Below, piece after piece: positions 1,210 through 12,839 of a DNA stretch of 64,000 nt. The notes under the pieces were generated by a model, which did not search any database, had not been told where the DNA came from, and was given only the letters and a program-made list of their open reading frames with translations. Positions within the stretch are counted from its first letter, which is position 1, and each line of letters begins with the position of its first letter. A program made the translations under genes and the position numbers. Origin of the DNA: a virus (Duplodnaviria > Caudoviricetes); the IMG/VR virus record IMGVR_UViG_3300044655_001017; one strand, given 5' to 3'.

Positions 1210-3869
1210 GTTATGTAGATGCATGGTTTGATCGCGATAATGATGTTATTAAAATTGTAGAAAGAAATTCAAAAGGTGAACGGGAATACAAAGATATTGC
1301 CGTTAAACACACATTATATTATACAGACCCGAAAGGGAAATATCAATCAATTTACGGAGACCCCGTATCAAAAGTAATTTGTAACAATACAAAAGAGTTC
1401 CGCAAAGAACTTTCAATACACGGTAATAAAAAGCTGTTTGAAGCAGATATTAATCCAATTTTTAAATGCTTATCAGATAACTACCTTAATCATGACGCAC
1501 CTAAATTAAATATTGCGTTTTATGATATTGAGGTTGATTTCGATCCAGAACGCGGGTATGCATCACCCGATGATGCGTTTATGCCTATTACTGCTATTGC
1601 AGTGTATTTACAATGGTTAGATACTCTTATTTGTTTAGCAATACCTCCAAAGACATTAACTATGGATCAAGCTAAAGAACAAATTAGAGATATTCCAAAT
1701 ACTATTCTCTTTAACACAGAAGCAGAGATGTTAGACACATTTTTAACACTGCTTGAAGATGCTGATATTATTAGCGGATGGAATAGTGAAGGATTTGATA
1801 TACCATACACTGTAAATCGTGTTACAAAAGTTCTATCAAAAGATGATACACGCAGATTCTGCTTGTTTAATCAATTACCAAAAAGACGTGAATATGAAAA
1901 GTACGGCAAAGCTGCAGTAACATACGACTTTGTAGGACGTGTGCATTTAGATAGTTTACAATTATATCAAAAGTACACATATGAAGAAAGACATAGTTTT
2001 AGACTTGATGCTATTGCTGAATATGAGTTAGGTGATCGTAAAACACAGTACGAAGGTACGCTTGATCAGTTATACAACAATGACTTTAGAACGTTTATTG
2101 AGTACAACCGTCAAGATACTATGCTATTACACAGACTTGATACAAAATTAAAGTTTATTGACCTAGCTAATACACTTGCACACGAGAACACTGTATTACT
2201 ACAAACTACTATGGGTGCGGTTGCTGTAACAGAACAAGCAATTATTAACGAATCACATCACAGAGGGTTTGTTGTACCTAACAGAAAAGGTAAAGCAGAA
2301 CCAATTCAAGCTGCAGGTGCGTATGTTGCGTATCCTAAAGAAGGAATTCATGACTGGATTGGCTCGCTAGATATTAACTCTCTGTATCCAAGTGCCATTA
2401 GAGCATTAAATATGGGTCCGGAGACTATTGTAGGACAACTTAGACCAATCGTAACTGACGAATACATAGGCTTACAACTAGCTAAAGGTAAATCGTTTGC
2501 TTCTGCATGGGAAGGGTTGTTTGGTACACTTGAATATACGTCTGTTATGAATGAAGAAATAGGTACTGATATTACAATTGACTGGGAAAATGGCGATACT
2601 GATATATTAAGTGCTGCTGAAGTATACAGATTGATATTTGAAAGTAATCAGCCATGGGTTATGTCAGCTAATGGAACTATCTTTTCATATGAAACAGAAG
2701 GTATTATTCCTGGATTACTAAAGCGATGGTATGCAGAACGTAAGGATATGCAGAAAAAGCTAAAAGAAGCTATTAATGCAGGTAATAAGATTGAAGAAGA
2801 ATATTGGGATAAACGTCAGCTGGTTAAGAAGATTAACCTAAATAGTTTATATGGTGCTATTCTTAATCCTGGATGTAGGTTCTTTGATAAACGTATTGGG
2901 CAATCAACTACGTTAACTGGCAGACAAATTGCTAAACACATGGCAGCTAAAGTAAATGAGATTATAACCGGCGAATACAATCACACAGGTAAGTCTATTA
3001 TTTACGGTGACACTGACTCTTGTTACTTTTCAGCGTATCCTACACTTAAACGTGAAATAGATAATGGTAGTTTACCATGGTCTAAGGAAACTGTTGTTCA
3101 ATTATATGATCAAATTAGTGATCAAGTTAATAGTACATTCCAACAGTTCATGCTTGATGCATTTCATTGCCCTAAATCACGTGGTGAAGTAATTAAAGCT
3201 GGTCGTGAGATTGTTGGTAGTAAGAGCTTATTCATTACTAAAAAACGTTATGCAGTACTAGTATACGATAAGGAAGGTAAACGTAAGGATACACTTGGTA
3301 AAAACGGTGAAATTAAAGCTATGGGCTTAGATTTAAAGCGTAGTGATACACCTGAATTTATTCAAGACTTCTTATCACAAGTATTAGAAATGGTATTAGG
3401 TGGTGATACTGAACAGCATGTACTAGATTACATCAGTAAGTTTAGGATATCGTTTAAAGCTAGACCAGGTTGGGAAAAAGGTTCGCCTAAACGCGCTAAT
3501 AGCATTACGTCTTATTTAGAAAAAGAAGCTAAACAAGGCAAAGTTAATATGCCCGGACATGTTAGAGCAAGTTTAAACTGGAATACACTAAAACGTATGT
3601 ATGATGACAAGTATTCGATGTCTATTACAGACGGTGCAAAGGTAATTGTATGTAAACTTAAACAAAACCCATTAGGGTTTACAAGTGTTGCGTACCCAGT
3701 AGATGAATTACGCTTACCGCAATGGTTTAAAAACCTACCATTTGATCATAATGGAATGGAAGATACTATTATTGATAACAAACTTGATAACTTGATTGGC
3801 ATTTTGAACTGGAAATTAGCTGACACGTCAGATAGAAACACATTTAACAGTTTATTTGAATTTGAATGA
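1206..3869 (+). CDS. gp43: Family B DNA polymerase (T4 gp43-like)
   Basis: ExoI DIEVD, ExoII GWNSEGFDIPY, polymerase motifs SLDINSLYPS, KINLNSLYG and YGDTDS, plus KKRYA. Confidence 0.97.
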   Translation: MSYVDAWFDRDNDVIKIVERNSKGEREYKDIAVKHTLYYTDPKGKYQSIYGDPVSKVICNNTKEFRKELSIHGNKKLFEADINPIFKCLSDNYLNHDAPKLNIAFYDIEVDFDPERGYASPDDAFMPITAIAVYLQWLDTLICLAIPPKTLTMDQAKEQIRDIPNTILFNTEAEMLDTFLTLLEDADIISGWNSEGFDIPYTVNRVTKVLSKDDTRRFCLFNQLPKRREYEKYGKAAVTYDFVGRVHLDSLQLYQKYTYEERHSFRLDAIAEYELGDRKTQYEGTLDQLYNNDFRTFIEYNRQDTMLLHRLDTKLKFIDLANTLAHENTVLLQTTMGAVAVTEQAIINESHHRGFVVPNRKGKAEPIQAAGAYVAYPKEGIHDWIGSLDINSLYPSAIRALNMGPETIVGQLRPIVTDEYIGLQLAKGKSFASAWEGLFGTLEYTSVMNEEIGTDITIDWENGDTDILSAAEVYRLIFESNQPWVMSANGTIFSYETEGIIPGLLKRWYAERKDMQKKLKEAINAGNKIEEEYWDKRQLVKKINLNSLYGAILNPGCRFFDKRIGQSTTLTGRQIAKHMAAKVNEIITGEYNHTGKSIIYGDTDSCYFSAYPTLKREIDNGSLPWSKETVVQLYDQISDQVNSTFQQFMLDAFHCPKSRGEVIKAGREIVGSKSLFITKKRYAVLVYDKEGKRKDTLGKNGEIKAMGLDLKRSDTPEFIQDFLSQVLEMVLGGDTEQHVLDYISKFRISFKARPGWEKGSPKRANSITSYLEKEAKQGKVNMPGHVRASLNWNTLKRMYDDKYSMSITDGAKVIVCKLKQNPLGFTSVAYPVDELRLPQWFKNLPFDHNGMEDTIIDNKLDNLIGILNWKLADTSDRNTFNSLFEFE

Positions 3870-3877
3870 ACTACTTA

Positions 3878-3906
3878 TTGACAAATTGATACAAATATAA
3901 TATAAT
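3878..3906 (+). promoter_or_regulatory. Sigma70-type promoter
   Basis: TTGACA (3878-3883), 17 bp spacer, TATAAT (3901-3906), then a GGAGA RBS and the ATG at 3928. Confidence 0.85.
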
Positions 3907-3927
3907 ATATAAAACTAGGAGATATAC

Positions 3928-4665
3928 ATGAAAAACTTTTTACAAGATTTAGTAGCACATACACACACATTAACCGTTTTACCATTAGTTAAAGTAACCG
4001 CAACTGCAGAAAATGCAGTGATCGAATCAGTAGCAGAAGATAGATCAGTAATGCTGTACGCAACTACACATACGCCAGTTAATGGTCTCGAACCATGCAT
4101 CTTTGGTATGCCAAACTTAAACAAATTAGACTTACATCTTAAATGTCCAGAATATAAAACTGATGCAACTATTAAAGTTGTACAAGAAACTAGAGATGGT
4201 GTGAAAATTCCAACAGGGTTACACTTTTCTAATGTAGCCGGCGATTATGAAAATGATTATAGATTTATGAATGAAGAAATCGTTAGTGCAAAAGTAAAAA
4301 GACCAAAACTTAAAGTAGAAATTGTGTATGACTTAGATTTTATTCCAGCTGAGGTAAGCATTCAGAGATTAAAACACCAAGCTGCTGCACATACTGAAGA
4401 AACTGTATTTCAACTAGTAACAGTTGATAACGATCTAGTATTTAGATTTGGTGATGCTAGTACACACGCAGGATCATTTGTATTCCATCATAACATTAAT
4501 ACTACATTAAAAAATACATGGTCATGGCCAATTACTCCAATTTTAAGTATTTTAAACTTAAATGGTAACTTAACTATGAAAGTTTCAGATCAAGGTTCGT
4601 TACAAATTATAGTTGACAGTGGTATTGCAGTTTATAACTACACTATTCCAGCATACACAAAATAA
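3928..4665 (+). CDS. Probable sliding clamp / polymerase processivity factor (gp45-like)
   Basis: 245 aa, clamp-sized, two-domain beta-rich pattern, directly after the polymerase. Family recognition only; no catalytic motif available. Confidence 0.6.
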   Translation: MKNFLQDLVAHTHTLTVLPLVKVTATAENAVIESVAEDRSVMLYATTHTPVNGLEPCIFGMPNLNKLDLHLKCPEYKTDATIKVVQETRDGVKIPTGLHFSNVAGDYENDYRFMNEEIVSAKVKRPKLKVEIVYDLDFIPAEVSIQRLKHQAAAHTEETVFQLVTVDNDLVFRFGDASTHAGSFVFHHNINTTLKNTWSWPITPILSILNLNGNLTMKVSDQGSLQIIVDSGIAVYNYTIPAYTK

Positions 4666-5057
4666 TGATGGATATTAGAAAAGCATTAAAATTATTAGAT
4701 ATCATATATGTAAACGAAAACGATAGCATTAAATCGTCAGTTGATAAACTAACAATGTTAGCGCAATTAGATATGCCATCTTATTCTATGCCAGGACCGT
4801 TTGAACAGTTTTATGTTGATTACGAATACATGAAACAACGTGTGCAAGGACTTGAATCGAGATTAACCACACTTGAAGATTATAATCGAAACCCATATAC
4901 AAATTACACTGTTAATTCGCATATAGTTGGACATGTTACTGCAAGTCCGCAGTTTGTAAGTGCATTTAACAGAATTACACAATTAGAAACTGAATTACAA
5001 GTTACTAAAACGTTACTTAGTAAGTTATTAACCCCAGAACAGGAAGAAGATGAATAG
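4665..5057 (+). CDS. Hypothetical protein with coiled-coil segments
   Basis: 130 aa ORF overlapping both neighbours; heptad-like stretches. Confidence 0.6.
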   Translation: MMDIRKALKLLDIIYVNENDSIKSSVDKLTMLAQLDMPSYSMPGPFEQFYVDYEYMKQRVQGLESRLTTLEDYNRNPYTNYTVNSHIVGHVTASPQFVSAFNRITQLETELQVTKTLLSKLLTPEQEEDE

Positions 5058-6945
5058 AAACTTAACAGCAACACAACAGGATTATGCCGTGTTTTTGCCA
5101 GCAACGTCGGGTTTTTACTCGACGTTTGTTGGAAAACAACGTTACGGCAATTATGTTGAGCCGTCACGTATTCCAACATCATTTAAAGCAGGCGTAGAAG
5201 GTCTTAATTACTTAGAACCAGAAAAAGGTGAATTTTATTACAGATGGTGTTTGTATTCAGCAGGGCATGCAAACTTAGATTTAAATAAGTTTGACGAAAG
5301 TGAAGATATGTTCCGTAATAGAGATAGAAGTACTAGCTGGGTGTTAGGTGACTCCGGAGGCTTCCAAATAGGGAAAGGTGTATGGGAAGGCGAATGGAGA
5401 GATCCTAACAGTGCAATAGTACAAACAACTATGGCTGATTGCATTGCTAAAGGTATTGAAACTGTTCCTGTACTTGACTCAACAGGAAATCCAGTAGTTA
5501 ACAAAAAAGGTGTTCCTAAAACTACTAAAATTGATCACGTTAAACTATATCAAGCTCGGTTAGATGCTGCTCAAAAGAAAAGAGAGCAAGTATTAGCATG
5601 GATGGATACGTTAATGGATTACGGAATGGTACTTGATATTCCAGCATGGGTTGAACGAAGTCCTGCTGGTAAACTTGCAACTGGTATTACAAGTTATGAC
5701 GAAGCAGTTGATGCTACAATTTATAACAATGAATACTTTATGAAACACCGCAATGGTAACTGTAAATTCTTAAACGTATTACAAGGTGAAACCCATACAC
5801 AAGCTGACGATTGGTATAGTAAGATGAAAGACTTTTGTGATCCTGCTATATATCCAGATACACACTTTAACGGGTGGTCAATGGGTGGTCAAAATATGTG
5901 TGATGCCGAACTAGTACTTAAACGTGTAGTAACATTAAAATTTGACAACTTGTTACAAGAAGGCAAACATGATTGGATGCATTTCTTAGGAACCAGTAAA
6001 TTAGAATGGGCATGCTTTTTAACTGATGTACAACGTGCAGTGCGTAAATATGTTAATCCAAAATTTACTATTAGTTATGATTGTGCTAGTCCATTTTTAG
6101 CTACTGCTAATGGTCAGGTATATATTACTACAGAATTAGATGATAGATCTAAATGGGTGTATCGAATGGTTCCAAGCGTTGACGATAAAAAGTATGCACA
6201 AGATGCTAGACTATTTAAAGATGCAGTAATACAAGATGGTATTTTTAGTGTGTTTGATCCAAGTCCATTAATTGATCAAGTAGCAATTAAAGACGTGTGT
6301 ATATATGGTCACGGTGTTCCTAATTGGACAGAAGTCAATAACGATAATGTTGATCATGCTAACCTATTTACAGATCCAAAATATTTAAATGATCCTAAAT
6401 ACTGGATAACATTAGGCGATGCAAATAAAATTAACAAGATTGGTAAAACTAGTTGGGATAGTTTTAGCTATGCTATTTTAATGGGGCATAATGTGTGGAG
6501 TCACGTTAATGCTGTACAAAAAGCAAATGAAGCTTACGACAACGGTATAATTCCTCGAATGTTAATAGGCGAAAAAACTCAACCGTATGTTGTTAGAGAT
6601 ATTATTGACCGGATTATTGCGTGTGATGATAGAACCGTTGCTATTAAGATGATTGAAGATCTTGAAAAGATATGGATGGCTATTCCGGGCACTAGAGGTA
6701 ACACTGGCAAAAACATAGTTAACAACGAAACTACTACTACTACTAATTATGTAGCCGAATCAATTATTACAGAAAAAGTTGAAAAAATTAGAAAAGTGTT
6801 ATTAACAGATCTTACATCACAAGTTAACAACTTATTTGATTTTGATGACAATATTACAGAAGAAGTAGAATCCGATGACTATGAGTTTTCTGAAGAAGAC
6901 GAACTTACCTTATCTAACCTAGAAGATAGCATTAAACATGAATAG
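5050..6945 (+). CDS. dpdA: DpdA-like DNA 7-deazaguanine transglycosylase (TGT fold)
   Basis: TGT signatures DSGGFQ, LDIP, GWSMGG, HFLG, YDCASP and GHN; clustered with folE, queE and a queD-like gene; acidic C-terminal tail. Confidence 0.8.
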   Translation: MNRNLTATQQDYAVFLPATSGFYSTFVGKQRYGNYVEPSRIPTSFKAGVEGLNYLEPEKGEFYYRWCLYSAGHANLDLNKFDESEDMFRNRDRSTSWVLGDSGGFQIGKGVWEGEWRDPNSAIVQTTMADCIAKGIETVPVLDSTGNPVVNKKGVPKTTKIDHVKLYQARLDAAQKKREQVLAWMDTLMDYGMVLDIPAWVERSPAGKLATGITSYDEAVDATIYNNEYFMKHRNGNCKFLNVLQGETHTQADDWYSKMKDFCDPAIYPDTHFNGWSMGGQNMCDAELVLKRVVTLKFDNLLQEGKHDWMHFLGTSKLEWACFLTDVQRAVRKYVNPKFTISYDCASPFLATANGQVYITTELDDRSKWVYRMVPSVDDKKYAQDARLFKDAVIQDGIFSVFDPSPLIDQVAIKDVCIYGHGVPNWTEVNNDNVDHANLFTDPKYLNDPKYWITLGDANKINKIGKTSWDSFSYAILMGHNVWSHVNAVQKANEAYDNGIIPRMLIGEKTQPYVVRDIIDRIIACDDRTVAIKMIEDLEKIWMAIPGTRGNTGKNIVNNETTTTTNYVAESIITEKVEKIRKVLLTDLTSQVNNLFDFDDNITEEVESDDYEFSEEDELTLSNLEDSIKHE

Positions 6946-8033: not shown

Positions 8034-8288
8034 ATGGCTAAAAATTACAAAACATTCTCATACTTAGAATCACGTCCAGATGTTGTTAAAATCTTTGAAG
8101 ATTTAGAAGCATTCCATGACTTTTGCAGAATTGAGTTACGTAAATTTGATCCAGCAGATTTATATCGCAAAGATAGTAAATCGTACGGTTCGTACATAGC
8201 AAGTAAACGTCCACGTAAACCATATCAAGGTAATAAACCATGGCCAAACGGTGTTAGACCTAAAAACACATATCAAAAAAAATCTTAA
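8034..8288 (+). CDS. Hypothetical basic protein
   Basis: 84 aa, packed operon position, Lys/Pro-rich tail. Confidence 0.65.
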   Translation: MAKNYKTFSYLESRPDVVKIFEDLEAFHDFCRIELRKFDPADLYRKDSKSYGSYIASKRPRKPYQGNKPWPNGVRPKNTYQKKS

Positions 8289-8301
8289 TCTTATTTTCAA
8301 C

Positions 8302-8323
8302 TGAAAGCCCTACGGGGCTTTCA
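8302..8323 (+). other. RNA hairpin with cUACGg tetraloop
   Basis: TGAAAGCCC-TACG-GGGCTTTCA, a 9-bp perfect stem with no U-tract, just upstream of the glycosyltransferase RBS. Confidence 0.55.
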
Positions 8324-8337
8324 CCGCAGGACATATT

Positions 8338-9435
8338 ATGAAATTAAAACCTACTATTTGGATATTTGCTATTGAACCATTAGATACTCGGTATACTAAA
8401 CAATGGATCGAGCATATTCCATCACAACTTAAAGAACACGTTGGTGATTACAACATTGTACAAATTACTGGTGATCAACAAGACTCAGAAGTAACACCGG
8501 GTGCATTTTTAAACTTTATAGATACTAACATTTGGAAAGGATCACAGCTTGTTGGTTTTTTAAAAAACTATAAACGTACTACAACAGCTGACCATTTCTT
8601 ATTTACCGATGCATGGAATCCAGCAATTATAAACTTAAAGTACATTAAAGACTTAATGAGATTAAATTGGACATTTCACGGTTTGTGGCACGCTGGCAGT
8701 TACGACAAACACGATTTCTTAGGTTCAATTGATCACGGTTGGGTTAAACTAGCTGAAAAGAGTTATTATGCAGCATTTGATCATAATTACTTTGCAACTG
8801 AATTCCACGTGCGTATGTTTATGGAACAATTATTAAACAACGGAATGACTAGTGAAAATCCGTGGTTTGAAGAAGATTGGGATGAACGTTACGACGATGG
8901 TAAAATTGTACGCACTGGTTGGCCAATGGAATACTTAGCAGACGAACTAGCGCCGTATGCTAATAAAGAGAAACGTGATTTAATTGTATTTCCACATAGA
9001 GTTGCTAGCGAAAAACAAGTTGATATTTTTAAAGCATTAGCTCATCAATTACCACAATACGACTTTGTTGTATGTCAAGAACAAAAGCTAAGTAAAGATG
9101 AATATCACAACCTGTTAAGCGAAGCAAAGATCGTGTTTAGTGCTAACTTACAAGAAACATTAGGCATTAGTTGTTATGAAGGTGCGTTACTTGGTGCTAT
9201 TCCGATGGTTCCTGATAGATTAAGTTATAAAGAAATGTATATGTATCATTTTAAATATCCATCAGAATGGACTGCTAGTTATGCAGACTACGAATCACAC
9301 AGTTATGATTTGTGTAACAAAATTATCCATTACATAGAAAACTATAATGATATTGTACCATATGTTAAACAACAAGCCGATTACTTAGCACTGGAATTTT
9401 TTAATGCAGGAGATTTATATGACAAGTTTAAATGA
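8338..9435 (+). CDS. GT-B (GT4-like) glycosyltransferase
   Basis: FPHRVASEKQ, ETLGISCYE (E-x7-E nucleotide-sugar motif), GAIPMVPDRLSY, WHAGSYD. Confidence 0.85.
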   Translation: MKLKPTIWIFAIEPLDTRYTKQWIEHIPSQLKEHVGDYNIVQITGDQQDSEVTPGAFLNFIDTNIWKGSQLVGFLKNYKRTTTADHFLFTDAWNPAIINLKYIKDLMRLNWTFHGLWHAGSYDKHDFLGSIDHGWVKLAEKSYYAAFDHNYFATEFHVRMFMEQLLNNGMTSENPWFEEDWDERYDDGKIVRTGWPMEYLADELAPYANKEKRDLIVFPHRVASEKQVDIFKALAHQLPQYDFVVCQEQKLSKDEYHNLLSEAKIVFSANLQETLGISCYEGALLGAIPMVPDRLSYKEMYMYHFKYPSEWTASYADYESHSYDLCNKIIHYIENYNDIVPYVKQQADYLALEFFNAGDLYDKFK

Positions 9436-9835
9436 TACAATAACAACATCAGCTGGGTGTGATACTATTACATTTACGATGGATGGAGATCTACGTTACG
9501 GTATACCAGCTTTTGATACTATTACACTTAGTGACTATGTATCTAGTTCAACTGCTAGCGGAATATACAATGGAACAATGATGGGAACTGCTCCGTACAC
9601 AATTAGTAATTCTTCTACTATTGGAATTAATGGGGGTTCATCTTATTACACCGGCACTGGTGGTTATTGGAATCAATCATATAACGGTAAACCATTTGAA
9701 GATAACTTTCCAGAATGGAATGCATTTAGAGAGTTGTGTGATGAATATCCAGGATTAGAAAGAGCATATCAAAACTTAAAAACTTTTTATACTATGTGCC
9801 ATGCAGATAGTTTATTACCAAAGGACGATAAATGA
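9419..9835 (+). CDS. Hypothetical protein, Ser/Thr/Gly-rich with a helical C-terminal domain
   Basis: AGGAG RBS at about 9408 supports the ATG at 9419 (in frame with the listed 9404). Confidence 0.6.
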   Translation: MTSLNDTITTSAGCDTITFTMDGDLRYGIPAFDTITLSDYVSSSTASGIYNGTMMGTAPYTISNSSTIGINGGSSYYTGTGGYWNQSYNGKPFEDNFPEWNAFRELCDEYPGLERAYQNLKTFYTMCHADSLLPKDDK

Positions 9836-10362
9836 AAGTAGTAAAATACAGTTGGAAACAATTAGAAGGTGCGGCATTGGAGATTGCACGTCAAATACAA
9901 AAAGATAACTGGAAACCAGATTACATTGTTGGAATTACACGCGGTGGACTTATTCCTGCAAACTTACTTAGTCAGTATCTTGGAGTTAAGATGTTAACAT
10001 TACACGTTAGTTTACGTGATCATCCGGATGATAACGAACACAATGCATGGATGGCATGTGATGCATTTGGAATTACTGATGACGAACTAGCAAGTACCGG
10101 ACAAGCTAAAAACATCTTAATTGTTGATGACATAAATGACTCAGGTGCAACCCTTGCTTGGATTAAAGAAGATTGGCAATCATTGTGTTTACCAGATAAC
10201 ATACGATGGAAAAACGATGTTTGGCATAAGAATGTTAGATTTGCTGTAGTGTTTGATAATGCTGCTAGTAATGCACATGTTGATTATTGTGCTGAAGAAT
10301 TTGATAAACGAGACGATCCAATTTGGATCGACTTTCCATGGGAAAACTACTGGAAGAAATAA
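9832..10362 (+). CDS. Type I purine phosphoribosyltransferase (Gpt/XGPRT-like)
   Basis: GITRGGLIPA, PRPP-binding motif ILIVDDINDSGAT, C-terminal WIDFPWE typical of Gpt-like PRTases. Confidence 0.88.
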   Translation: MKVVKYSWKQLEGAALEIARQIQKDNWKPDYIVGITRGGLIPANLLSQYLGVKMLTLHVSLRDHPDDNEHNAWMACDAFGITDDELASTGQAKNILIVDDINDSGATLAWIKEDWQSLCLPDNIRWKNDVWHKNVRFAVVFDNAASNAHVDYCAEEFDKRDDPIWIDFPWENYWKK

Positions 10363-10694
10363 TGGAACTACACTCAATAGCTAAAAAACACGGTATACGA
10401 AGTATAGACGTTGAACAATATTATGCTACAGATGGTAATTATTCGTTAGATTGGTCAAGATCAAACCTGCCAAGCGAACGAGCAAACATTACAAGGTCGT
10501 TAACTGTTAAAATACACGAGAGAGATTTTATAACGTTAATTGACAACGCTGAAAAGTGTGAAGACTGGAATAAAAAATTTTATGAAGATATGTATGTTAG
10601 AGATTCTAATCCAACTGTTAAAGCAGCATACGAAAAATATCAAATGTTTTTAGAAATAGCAAGATCGGAGGTAAAAAATGACAGATTTAACTAA
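10362..10694 (+). CDS. Hypothetical protein
   Basis: TAATG overlap with the PRTase stop gives a start at 10362 (in frame with the listed 10323). Confidence 0.6.
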   Translation: MELHSIAKKHGIRSIDVEQYYATDGNYSLDWSRSNLPSERANITRSLTVKIHERDFITLIDNAEKCEDWNKKFYEDMYVRDSNPTVKAAYEKYQMFLEIARSEVKNDRFN

Positions 10695-10839
10695 AGAAGA
10701 ATTACAAGAAAAAATTGCACAAGTAAAACGTGATATTGCTAAACATAGCGATTCAAACAATCAACGTATGCTGTTAGGTTTGTCACAATATTTAGAATAC
10801 TTAGAAGACGACTTAAAAACATTGACAAACAAGCAATAG
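10678..10839 (+). CDS. Small coiled-coil hypothetical protein (53 aa, absent from the ORF track)
   Basis: GGAGGT RBS, then ATG 10678 (MTDLTKEELQEKIAQVKRDIAKH...) to TAG 10837-10839; fills the gap before folE. Confidence 0.65.
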   Translation: MTDLTKEELQEKIAQVKRDIAKHSDSNNQRMLLGLSQYLEYLEDDLKTLTNKQ

Positions 10840-10850
10840 TGTTGTATAAT
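10822..10850 (+). promoter_or_regulatory. Sigma70-type promoter for the folE-queE genes
   Basis: TTGACA (10822-10827), 17 bp spacer, TATAAT (10845-10850). Confidence 0.85.
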
Positions 10851-10876
10851 ACACACTTACAAATAGGAAATTAAAT

Positions 10877-11548
10877 ATGAGCTTTAATAAAACAAAAACC
10901 GATCTAGAATTAGGTTTAGCAATACATAATCATTTAGTAAGTTTAGGTGTAGAAACTCCAGTAACTGAAAAAATCTTAACAGCATCGGAAAAGATTAATA
11001 TCATTCAGGACAAGTTTTATGATATTATGGTAACATTAGGATTAGACTTAACAGACGATAGTTTAGCAGATACACCTAAACGTGTTGCAAAGATGTTTGT
11101 CAACGAAATATTTTGGGGCCTCGATTACGACGCATTTCCAAAGTGTACTACTATTCAAAATAAGATGGGATACAATGAAATGTTAATTGAACGCAACATT
11201 AACGTACAAAGTAACTGCGAACATCACTTTGTAGTAATTGACGGGTTTGCAACAGTAGGTTACATTCCAAAAGATGTTGTACTTGGATTAAGCAAAATTA
11301 ATCGCGTAGTTGAATACTTTGCAAAACGTCCACAAGTACAAGAAAGATTAACAGAACAAGTATTCCATGCATTGGCATACATTTTAGATACTGATAATAT
11401 TGCAGTAGTTATTGATGCAAAACACTATTGTGTTGCTGCAAGAGGTGTAGAAGATACAGGTAGCACTACTATTACTAGTAAGTTAGGCGGTGCATTTAAA
11501 AACGATCCAACTACTCGTGCAGAATTTATGAGTATTGTAAACAAATAA
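10877..11548 (+). CDS. folE: GTP cyclohydrolase I
   Basis: DTPKRVAKM, CEHH, GLSKINR, RPQVQERLT and HYCVAARGV motifs. Confidence 0.96.
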   Translation: MSFNKTKTDLELGLAIHNHLVSLGVETPVTEKILTASEKINIIQDKFYDIMVTLGLDLTDDSLADTPKRVAKMFVNEIFWGLDYDAFPKCTTIQNKMGYNEMLIERNINVQSNCEHHFVVIDGFATVGYIPKDVVLGLSKINRVVEYFAKRPQVQERLTEQVFHALAYILDTDNIAVVIDAKHYCVAARGVEDTGSTTITSKLGGAFKNDPTTRAEFMSIVNK

Positions 11549-11556
11549 GGAGAGTT

Positions 11557-12000
11557 ATGAAAGACTTAAAACCACAAATTCCAGCAGTAGGCATTATGAA
11601 AACAAGTGACTGGGGTAACAGTAAAATTTATAAAATTCAATGCACATGCGGCAACGACGATGATAGTATTGAGTTTATGGTTGAGGCAGATGATCTTAAT
11701 ATGATTACTGTAACTACATTTACAACGCAAAAAACTGCGTACTGGGATAGACCATTTGATGTTTCAAACACATACAAAATTAAAAATTCGTTTTTAAGCA
11801 GTATTGCATACGAAACATTGAGCTTTCTTAACGGGTTTCAGCATCGTATTAAAATGACATGGAATTTGTGGTTTAATGGTTATCTTAAATATCAGCAATC
11901 AACTATAATGACTGAACAACAGACATTAAACTATGCAGAAACATTGAAAGCTGCTATTAAAGATTGCAAAGATTTTCGTAAACAAGATAGGAACAATTAA
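11557..12000 (+). CDS. Hypothetical protein between folE and queE
   Basis: 147 aa, AAGGAG RBS, CxC motif (QCTCG), stop overlaps the queE start. Confidence 0.7.
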   Translation: MKDLKPQIPAVGIMKTSDWGNSKIYKIQCTCGNDDDSIEFMVEADDLNMITVTTFTTQKTAYWDRPFDVSNTYKIKNSFLSSIAYETLSFLNGFQHRIKMTWNLWFNGYLKYQQSTIMTEQQTLNYAETLKAAIKDCKDFRKQDRNN

Positions 12001-12839
12001 TGTTATTAAAAGTATCGGAATTATTTTACTCATTACAAGGCGAAGGGCGATTTATGGGAGTACCGTCCATCTTCTTACGTACATACGGTTGCAACTTTAA
12101 ATGCCAAGGGTTTGGCATGCCTAAAGGTGAACATAGTGTACAAGCAGATGCTATTGCTAATAACGGTGTGCAATATCATTCGTATGATGAGTTACCGTTA
12201 GTAACTACTGGCTGTGACAGTTATGCAAGTTGGCATCCAACGTTTAAACATCTAAGTCCAACTATGTCAATAGACGAAGTTGCAGCTAAAATGATTGAGC
12301 TGTTACCTAACAATGAATGGGGTGGTGTACACTTAGTTATTACAGGTGGCGAACCATTACTACCCGGTTGGCAAAAGATATATCCAGAATTACTAAGACA
12401 CCCATTATTAGCAGACTTAAAAAACATTACATTTGAAACTAATGGTACACAAGAACTGTTACAAGATTTTGAAAACTACTTATACATGGAAAGACGGTAT
12501 CAAACTACGTTTTCAGTTAGTCCTAAGCTAAGTGTAAGTGGCGAGCCTAGAGAAAAAGCTATACGTCCTGAGATTGTAACAGAATATCAATTTTCAGGTC
12601 ATAGTTCATTCTTAAAATTTGTAGTAGCATCCGAAGACGATGTAACAGAAGCACTTGAAGTAATGCAGCTATATAAAGACAACGGATTTAGAGGTGATAT
12701 TTACTTAATGCCAGTAGGCGGTGTAACTGATGTATACAATCTTAATAATCGACGAGTAGCAGAACTTGCATTAAAGCACGGATTGAGATACAGTGATAGA
12801 CTTCACCTCCCTCTCTTCGGTAACAACTGGGGAACATAA
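12000..12839 (+). CDS. queE: 7-carboxy-7-deazaguanine synthase (radical SAM)
   Basis: ELFYSLQGEG, FLRTYGCNFKC...GCDS, LVITGGEP, FETNG, SVSPK, YLMP and SDRLH motifs. Confidence 0.92.
   Translation: MLLKVSELFYSLQGEGRFMGVPSIFLRTYGCNFKCQGFGMPKGEHSVQADAIANNGVQYHSYDELPLVTTGCDSYASWHPTFKHLSPTMSIDEVAAKMIELLPNNEWGGVHLVITGGEPLLPGWQKIYPELLRHPLLADLKNITFETNGTQELLQDFENYLYMERRYQTTFSVSPKLSVSGEPREKAIRPEIVTEYQFSGHSSFLKFVVASEDDVTEALEVMQLYKDNGFRGDIYLMPVGGVTDVYNLNNRRVAELALKHGLRYSDRLHLPLFGNNWGT

Follow-up and report, generated by a model that had tools for sequence, protein, structure and literature searches.

The 64,000-nucleotide virus sequence IMGVR_UViG_3300044655_001017 (Duplodnaviria; Caudoviricetes), referred to here at its full length as the window, appears to come from a T4-related jumbo phage. 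In its putative replication block, the genes for a gp43-like DNA polymerase, a sliding clamp with a PCNA fold and a small protein are followed by that for a divergent DpdA-like guanine transglycosylase; FolE and QueE-like genes lie beyond it. The 7-deazaguanine modification of phage DNA is currently described as post-replicative base exchange, and neither the very high or complete replacement nor the choice of phage over host DNA has an explanation. The polymerase and the transglycosylase of this locus carry similar short peptides in their C-terminal tails, which an earlier note on this DNA had read as clamp-binding, and the question is whether a base-exchange enzyme could be held at the replication fork by the clamp that serves the polymerase. 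Our results showed that the peptide of the transglycosylase is very probably a functional short linear motif. Its resemblance to the polymerase tail and to the clamp-binding peptides of T4 suggested that its partner is probably the phage clamp, so that tethering would couple base exchange to replication.

A shared motif in the tails of the polymerase and the transglycosylase

The polymerase terminated with FNSLFEFE, and the transglycosylase carried VNNLFDFDD at residues 592-600; translation reproduced exactly the positions that the earlier note had given for both. The motif of the transglycosylase lay in a tail of 81 residues (551-631), which contained 21 Asp and Glu against 6 Lys and Arg and had a net charge of about -15. 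In the AlphaFold2 model, the predicted local distance difference test (pLDDT) score fell below 50 at residues 551-577 and 591-609. Since this includes the surroundings of residues 592-600, the motif is placed in a probably disordered stretch, and the description of the tail as acidic and probably disordered held. Among the proteins of the window, only the polymerase and the transglycosylase had the motif in a C-terminal or disordered context.

The tail also contained a second conserved module at residues 615-631, consisting of an acidic stretch and a predicted helix (615-630; block-mean pLDDT of 78 and 82 for residues 611-630). The helix was predicted to be amphipathic. The module recurred in many close and distant homologues and was missing from the forms that end at LF[DE].

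Conservation of the transglycosylase motif

The transglycosylase family comprised at least 7546 scored metagenome homologues, represented by 870 clusters at 50% identity. Conservation of the motif, which the earlier note had named as a check on its idea, was found in all 121 of the closest homologues when variants were included. The pattern [Phi]-x-x-[LFM]-[FW]-[polar or acidic] was matched by 105 of these, and the other 16 had conservative variants (LY, LW, IF); the consensus was F-x-x-L-F-[ED]. Between the domain end and the motif lay 12 to 41 residues, and the motif was located either 1-3 residues from the C-terminus or 26-43 residues before it, with an acidic extension following. The rest of the tail diverged among these homologues while the motif was kept.

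The distant sample consisted of 100 full-length representatives of the 50%-identity clusters, the tails of which were compared with 2000 composition-preserving shuffles. The core motif was present in the last 60 residues of 41 representatives versus 11.4 ± 3.1 after shuffling (maximum 25 in 2000), an enrichment of about four-fold, and the full motif was present in 33 versus 6.1 ± 2.4. Motif density in the tail was 6-10 times that of the catalytic body. A motif that is conserved and mobile amid a diverging tail, and enriched over shuffled sequences, bears the signature of a functional short linear motif, and on this sequence evidence we assign such a role to it with high confidence.

Three homologues without the motif (P0257, P0335 and P0312, a small sample) lay in islands carrying an integrase, where no T4-type polymerase was called in the vicinity, and where the DNA was readable no clamp homologue was found. 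The contig of P0312 contained a separate 232-amino-acid (aa) open reading frame (ORF) with a polymerase-B exonuclease domain, two genes 5' of the transglycosylase homologue. An ORF of 556-573 aa that matched nothing in Pfam came directly before P0335 (L086:8341-11371) and before P0312 (genes 8283-10004 and 10001-11335), overlapping the homologue in both cases. This ORF and the motif-less gene resembling tRNA-guanine transglycosylase (TGT) thus seem to form a two-gene module that is conserved in mobile elements or bacteria. P0257 was preceded by an ORF of 111 aa. Two further homologues were uninformative: the 12-kb contig of P0297, a protein with the C-terminus FNTLFQ, showed no polymerase, and the contig of P0309 was 2.4 kb long.

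Pairing of the motif with polymerase and clamp across lineages

The polymerase tail read NTFN[SKN]LF[DE]F in 81 related loci. In a scan of 3591 ORFs, which covered the initial 21 kb of the window and 87 related loci, the strict C-terminal motif belonged to a polymerase in 81 cases, to a transglycosylase in 24 and to another ORF, mostly a short antisense one, in 26. In the seven divergent lineages examined, the polymerase and the transglycosylase shared the motif class (Table 1), and a clamp homologue was encoded in each.

Table 1. C-terminal tail motifs of polymerase and transglycosylase in seven lineages
Lineage	Polymerase tail	Transglycosylase tail
Window	TFNSLFEFE	VNNLFDFDD
L002 type	TFNKLFDF	TFDSLFE
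L084	TLDDLFDF	VNNLFDFS
PAC2 (PA5oct-like)	HFDSLFGW	SFNSLFDVD
Vibrio phage 2.275.O	NNTDLFDW	NNNDLFGW
Sinorhizobium phage Phosso	TFNDLFTF	VEGLF
L128	AMKLFNY	AKSLFEF

In six of the seven lineages the clamp gene was no more than a gene or two away from the polymerase gene. In L128, a 340-aa ORF and a C-terminal polymerase piece separated the N-terminal polymerase piece from the clamp. The clamp was also close upstream of the transglycosylase in six of the seven, the genes being far apart in Phosso. In L002, a relative of 347,844 bases, a Na+/H+ exchanger-family gene (L002:8588-9763) sat between the clamp and transglycosylase genes. Both tails of Vibrio phage 2.275.O ended in Trp, a lineage-specific feature which suggests, from the sequences, co-evolution with one common pocket.

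The sliding clamp

The ORF that the earlier note had regarded as a probable clamp (245 aa) gave no Pfam or PDB sequence match and no BLAST similarity to T4 gp45. Its AlphaFold2 model, built with 30 homologues, had a mean pLDDT of 82.7 and a predicted template modelling score of 0.83. All 50 listed PDB matches of this model in Foldseek were sliding clamps, nearly all of them PCNA and one a 9-1-1 checkpoint clamp. The alignments spanned the full length of the two-domain clamp fold, with a best E of 2e-10 and template modelling (TM) scores of about 0.6-0.7. The predicted structure and these full-length matches confirmed the fold as that of a PCNA-type sliding clamp, and the assignment as a clamp was borne out. 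Two of the outcomes that the earlier note had named as refuting its idea, loss of the motif in homologues and an ORF other than a clamp, were therefore rejected. Clamp homologues adjoined the polymerase in PA5oct-like phages (one record annotates PCNA), Atu_ph07, RaK2-like phages and elsewhere, and gp44-like clamp loaders were encoded in three complete relatives.

Identity of the transglycosylase

Searches of the transglycosylase sequence against Pfam, PHROGs, NCBIfam and PDB returned nothing useful, and the protein was placed only by fold and by profile-profile comparison. The AlphaFold2 model of the 631-aa protein (67 diverse homologues) had a pLDDT of 90.5, with residues 1-550 well ordered at pLDDT above 90. 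All the top PDB matches listed by Foldseek were TGTs (E of about 1e-6, probability 1.0, TM by target of about 0.5), and the modelled protein is a TIM barrel of the TGT type. In BFVD, the matches included Vibrio phage nt-1 R9TGF0 (2e-9) and the TGT of Achromobacter phage Motura (2.9e-9), followed by weaker ones to classical phage queuine tRNA-ribosyltransferase-like proteins and to a Cellulophaga phage phiST protein (1.3e-3). We infer that R9TGF0 is the DpdA2 of the 2019 paper, where it appears as YP_008125322. The family profile matched nt-1 DpdA2 weakly (E 1.7e-5, 20 bits) and had no match in Campylobacter phage CP220; tblastn of the protein against the phage collection gave 13 records, even at E = 1.

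Profile comparison by hhalign with E. coli Tgt gave a probability of 86.5% and an E of 4.6e-6, and paired Asp101 and Asp344 with the TDSGGFQ and FDCVMPT motifs of that enzyme. D101-S102-x-G104 and D344 were invariant in the family alignment of 67 sequences. The column of Asp344 is presumably the position of the catalytic nucleophile, as established for TGT. No cysteine cluster like the CxCxxC...H zinc site of canonical TGT was found in this alignment. Past residue 344, conservation was seen only at C417 (49 of 67) and H480 (60 of 67), and H73 and the invariant H311 lie upstream.

The surroundings of the homologues pointed to deazaguanine metabolism. In Vibrio phage 2.275.O the homologue was flanked by QueF, QueC and FolE and by the gene of a transporter of the vitamin-uptake type, which the 2019 survey enters in its YhhQ column; the homologue itself was not scored as DpdA in that survey. 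The PAC2 homologue adjoined a gene annotated as 7-carboxy-7-deazaguanine synthase (QueE), and FolE was located near the homologues in L002 and L084. A comparative survey assigned a deazaguanine synthesis and incorporation system to PA5oct. Because of the TGT fold, the aligned catalytic Asp residues and the linkage to deazaguanine genes, a DpdA-like DNA transglycosylase is the best assignment, and sequence and model together make the TGT/DpdA-like identity likely. The earlier identification of this ORF as DpdA was therefore upheld at the level of the TGT/DpdA superfamily, with both catalytic Asp residues in place and FolE and QueE genes nearby.

Similar to DpdA1, DpdA2, DpdA3 and DpdA4, the protein has the TGT-superfamily fold, the catalytic residues and the linkage to FolE and QueE/QueC/QueF, and it shows structural and weak profile similarity to nt-1 DpdA2 in particular. 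Unlike the described DpdA proteins, it is larger (631 aa), contains insertions and an 80-residue tail, and has no conserved CxCxxC zinc site. By its sequence, the family appears distinct from the described DpdA subfamilies.

Comparison with known systems

The T4 clamp is trimeric and of the PCNA type, and the tail of gp43 binds gp45 in T4 and RB69 (PMC2988020). The C-terminal clamp-binding motifs of T4 gp43, gp55 and gp33 are hydrophobic-acidic and interchangeable, are attached by variable linkers and function when internal (PMC2988020). The T4 genome encodes SLDFLFG as the C-terminus of gp43 and SLDFLYEAND as that of gp55, and the hydrophobic-acidic character of the polymerase tail of the window matched these, in line with the resemblance to gp43 peptides that had been noticed earlier. 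The two systems have in common a short hydrophobic-acidic peptide at or near the C-terminus, a variable unstructured linker and several clients, putative ones here, of one clamp. They differ in the motif, which is Phi-x-x-L-F-[DE]-Phi here and S-L-D-F-L-[FY] in T4, and in the second client, which would be a base-exchange enzyme here and is a transcription factor in T4, the gp55-like proteins here being without the motif. By analogy, and from the sequences, the motif of the transglycosylase and polymerase may work like a T4-type clamp-binding peptide.

T4 also offers a DNA-modifying enzyme for comparison. We know of no C-terminal motif that alpha-glucosyltransferase shares with these tails, and none was seen at the C-terminus of the T4 enzyme. 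The alpha-glucosyltransferase of T4 co-purifies with and binds gp45 (PMC13216743), and the same paper, citing Sommer 2004, presents it as proposed to act concomitantly with replication. The likeness lies in the pairing of a phage DNA-modifying enzyme with a phage sliding clamp, which is the putative partner here; the chemistry differs, being glucosylation of hydroxymethylcytosine in T4 and guanine base exchange here.

Outside phages, the PCNA-interacting protein (PIP) box, Q-x-x-[ILM]-x-x-[FY]-[FY], tethers DNA-modifying and repair enzymes such as DNMT1 and UNG2 to PCNA. The arrangement proposed here would likewise use a short motif within a disordered segment to hold a DNA-modifying enzyme on a replication clamp, and it differs in the bacteriophage setting and in base exchange. 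The motifs of the polymerase and the transglycosylase fall outside the PIP-box definition because neither has Gln at the required position.

The word "clamp" was absent from the two main DpdA papers, and the one of 2023 described the modification as post-replicative. In the full-text literature on DpdA with sliding clamp and on deazaguanine with PCNA, no relevant report of a clamp-tethered DpdA was found. The claim that such an enzyme had not been described stood for DpdA in the literature searched; for the general principle, T4 alpha-glucosyltransferase and gp45 are a precedent. What is new is the clamp-binding-like peptide on a DpdA-like enzyme; a clamp-bound phage DNA-modifying enzyme is already known from T4 alpha-glucosyltransferase.

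A proposed mechanism and its alternatives

The shared motif Phi-x-x-L-F-[DE]-(Phi) would be the clamp-binding peptide of this phage clade, of the kind found in T4 gp43, gp55 and gp33. The phage clamp loader would place the clamp on primer termini, and the polymerase would occupy one pocket of the clamp while the tail motif of the transglycosylase docked in a free one. A flexible linker of about 40 residues would give the catalytic domain access to the duplex as it leaves the rear of the clamp, and guanine would be exchanged there for a 7-deazaguanine base. Modification would in this way be coupled to replication and aimed at phage DNA, and tethering would presumably raise its efficiency or its selectivity.

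Several observations weigh against this reading. In PAC2 and Vibrio phage 2.275.O, the gp55-like homologues of the late sigma factor had no such C-terminal motif, so the positive control expected from T4 is missing. The miniature DnaE-like polymerases of Phosso and Vibrio phage 2.275.O had neither the motif nor the C-terminal extension seen in that of PAC2, and the tail of the Phosso transglycosylase, VEGLF, was a weak match. Campylobacter phage CP220 offered no parallel, since its polymerase ends in TLEEW and the adjoining, unverified 259-aa ORF in SKMLD. The enzyme lacks the canonical zinc site, as described above, and its substrate is only presumed to be DNA. In T4, a 2026 study confirmed the binding of alpha-glucosyltransferase to gp45 and attributed the ratio of alpha to beta glucosylation mainly to expression level rather than to clamp binding (PMC13216743). 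Finally, nt-1 DpdA2 (L132:4913-6307, L134) had no tail motif, although nt-1 is a T4-like phage with a gp45-type system and its polymerase ends in TLESFFG. Tethering is therefore not general to phage DpdA, and the feature belongs to the present transglycosylase family. The DNA of nt-1 contains dPreQ0, and its modification is low-level (PMC6884629), a single case that fits tethering going with high-level modification.

The conservation and mobility of the motif speak for a function, not for the identity of the partner, and the motif could instead bind another shared replisome or localisation factor, such as single-stranded DNA-binding protein, helicase or primase, or a scaffold of the replication compartment. 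The gp55-like proteins without the motif would suit such a partner, as would the second acidic helix module, with which the tail has more than one interaction surface. The same applies to a protein encoded next to the transglycosylase in Vibrio phage 2.275.O, whose motif is N-terminal, an unusual place for T4-type clamp clients. However, in every T4-type system studied the family-B polymerase binds the clamp with its extreme C-terminus, and the hydrophobic-acidic character of the motif matches that of T4, so that we consider another partner unlikely.

The bacterial beta-clamp-binding consensus is QL[SD]LF, and the core of the motif, x-S/N-L-F, resembles it, which is a further point against the phage clamp as partner. 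The motif might then recruit the polymerase and the transglycosylase to host-type clamps by binding the host beta sliding clamp (DnaN), and MuC of phage Mu is reported to use the host beta clamp (PMC12867686). However, the motif has no counterpart to the conserved Gln of the beta consensus, the polymerase is a homologue of gp43, whose tail binds the phage clamp, and all seven lineages encode a PCNA-fold clamp of their own, mostly near the polymerase or transglycosylase, with gp44-like loaders in the three complete relatives. The terminal Trp or Phe, which varies by lineage, is also easier to reconcile with a phage partner that evolves fast than with the conserved pocket of the beta clamp. Recruitment to DnaN seemed improbable on these grounds.

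The transglycosylase could also be a tRNA-modifying TGT acting on phage or host tRNAs, its tail motif being unrelated to DNA modification; its listed top PDB neighbours are all TGTs, and jumbo phages often encode tRNAs. The gene nevertheless forms part of the replication block, with the clamp on one side and the genes of deazaguanine synthesis on the other, and the nearest named viral structural neighbour is the nt-1 protein taken as DpdA2, from a phage with dPreQ0 in its DNA. Together with the deazaguanine system listed for PA5oct and a motif in common with the replicative polymerase, which a tRNA enzyme would hardly explain, this makes the tRNA function very improbable. Functionless chance or compositional convergence of two acidic tails is the least credible account and can scarcely be held, for although about 10% of unrelated protein tails have a pentamer containing LF and the motif is itself short, it was enriched over shuffled tails, retained in close homologues despite divergent flanks and paired with the polymerase in seven lineages.

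Gene order and promoter

The polymerase of the window shared 25.7% identity with T4 gp43 over 876 columns. Three perfect (12/12) sigma-70 consensus sequences were found on the + strand between 600 and 14500, at 637-665, 3878-3906 and 10822-10850. Each precedes a gene block: DsbA-like and polymerase genes, clamp and transglycosylase genes, and FolE and QueE genes, respectively. A scan of the same interval and strand found no terminator-like site, and the genes from 3928 to past 6945 overlap or abut (4665/4665, 5050/5057, 6938/6945). The promoter, the overlapping genes and the lack of a terminator-like site make it plausible that the clamp, the small ORF and the transglycosylase are transcribed together. 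The earlier note had placed the transglycosylase two genes after the clamp under this promoter; the gene order was found as described, a perfect consensus lies at that place, and the common transcription is plausible only. The 130-aa small ORF had no Pfam or PHROG match. The window contained, 3' of the transglycosylase, genes for a phosphoribosyltransferase (PRTase), FolE, a QueE-like radical-SAM enzyme and a FEN/RNase H-type exonuclease. The features of the locus are collected in Table 2.

Table 2. Features of the locus and their positions in the window
Feature	Position	Strand	Basis
Family-B (T4 gp43-like) DNA polymerase, 887 aa	1206..3869	+	Pfam DNA_pol_B 8.4e-37, DNA_pol_B_exo1 2e-18; phrog_262 4.2e-201
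Polymerase C-terminal motif FNSLFEFE, putative clamp-binding peptide	3843..3866	+	Translation; stop at 3867-3869
Sigma-70-type promoter consensus TTGACA-17-TATAAT, 5' of clamp gene	3878..3906	+	12/12 match, consensus only
PCNA/gp45-type sliding clamp (predicted fold), 245 aa	3928..4665	+	AlphaFold2 fold and Foldseek
Small ORF between clamp and transglycosylase, 130 aa	4665..5057	+	Start overlaps clamp stop, end overlaps transglycosylase gene
Catalytic domain (residues 1-550) of divergent TGT/DpdA-superfamily transglycosylase (probable), in the 631-aa ORF 5050-6945	5050..6699	+	AlphaFold2, Foldseek, hhalign
Asp101 in GDSGGFQ	5350..5352	+	Invariant in 67 sequences; hhalign pairing with TDSGGFQ of E. 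coli Tgt
Asp344 in YDCASPF	6079..6081	+	Invariant in 67 sequences; hhalign pairing with FDCVMPT of E. coli Tgt
Acidic, largely low-confidence C-terminal tail, residues 551-631	6700..6942	+	pLDDT, composition
Tail motif VNNLFDFDD, residues 592-600, putative clamp-binding peptide	6823..6849	+	Translation, homologue conservation
Second conserved tail module, acidic stretch and predicted helix, EF[ST]E[DE]E..L..LE..[VI]K	6892..6942	+	Residues 615-631
FolE gene	10877-11548		
QueE-like gene	12000-12839		

Other proteins with similar motifs

The genomes of PAC2 and Vibrio phage 2.275.O were assembled from record stretches for a proteome scan. The protein NVP2275O_469 (L088:7535-8647, 370 aa), which adjoins the transglycosylase in Vibrio phage 2.275.O, has the N-terminus MFNELFDFND, a motif of the same class. 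Its only family match was a weak one to Amidoligase_2 (E 1.8e-4, 21.9 bits against a cut-off of 22), and it is possibly a second clamp-tethered tailoring enzyme. In the same phage, a 74-aa ORF (L113:4713-4937) ends in SSLFEW, closely similar to the tails of its polymerase and transglycosylase, and the deoxynucleoside monophosphate kinase (L118:13553-14203) ends in QGLFQ.

In PAC2, the miniature DnaE-like polymerase (phrog_11778; L097:15268-15870, record 129268-129870) ends in an acidic linker and FKLFS. The large terminase subunit of this phage (L097:150-1718, record 114150-115718) has a hydrophobic-acidic end, DDDSMPMPFLF, which could be due to chance or to a link between packaging and the clamp. 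In L009, an HNH endonuclease ORF (L009:7601-8011), about 640 bases 3' of the transglycosylase gene, ends in NFNNLFELV, again of the same motif class.

Implications

A clamp-binding peptide on the transglycosylase would offer a concrete mechanism for the replacement and the choice of DNA that lack an explanation, namely recruitment to freshly loaded phage clamps. The cultured members of the family (the PA5oct group, Vibrio phage 2.275.O and Phosso) make the idea testable at the bench. If it is true, phage clamp clients would extend beyond the polymerase, the late-transcription factors and alpha-glucosyltransferase, and a clamp-binding consensus would be defined for PA5oct- and RaK2-type jumbo phages, which would help to find further clients.

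More tentatively, a very large and mostly uncultured clade of T4-related jumbo phages might have made the "post-replicative" DpdA reaction replisome-coupled, with the transglycosylase, and perhaps other tailoring enzymes such as NVP2275O_469, as tool-belt clients of the clamp. In that case nascent phage DNA would be modified within seconds of its synthesis, selectively and at high stoichiometry, and this would explain, as a general solution, how replacement by a base-exchange enzyme can become nearly complete across a genome.

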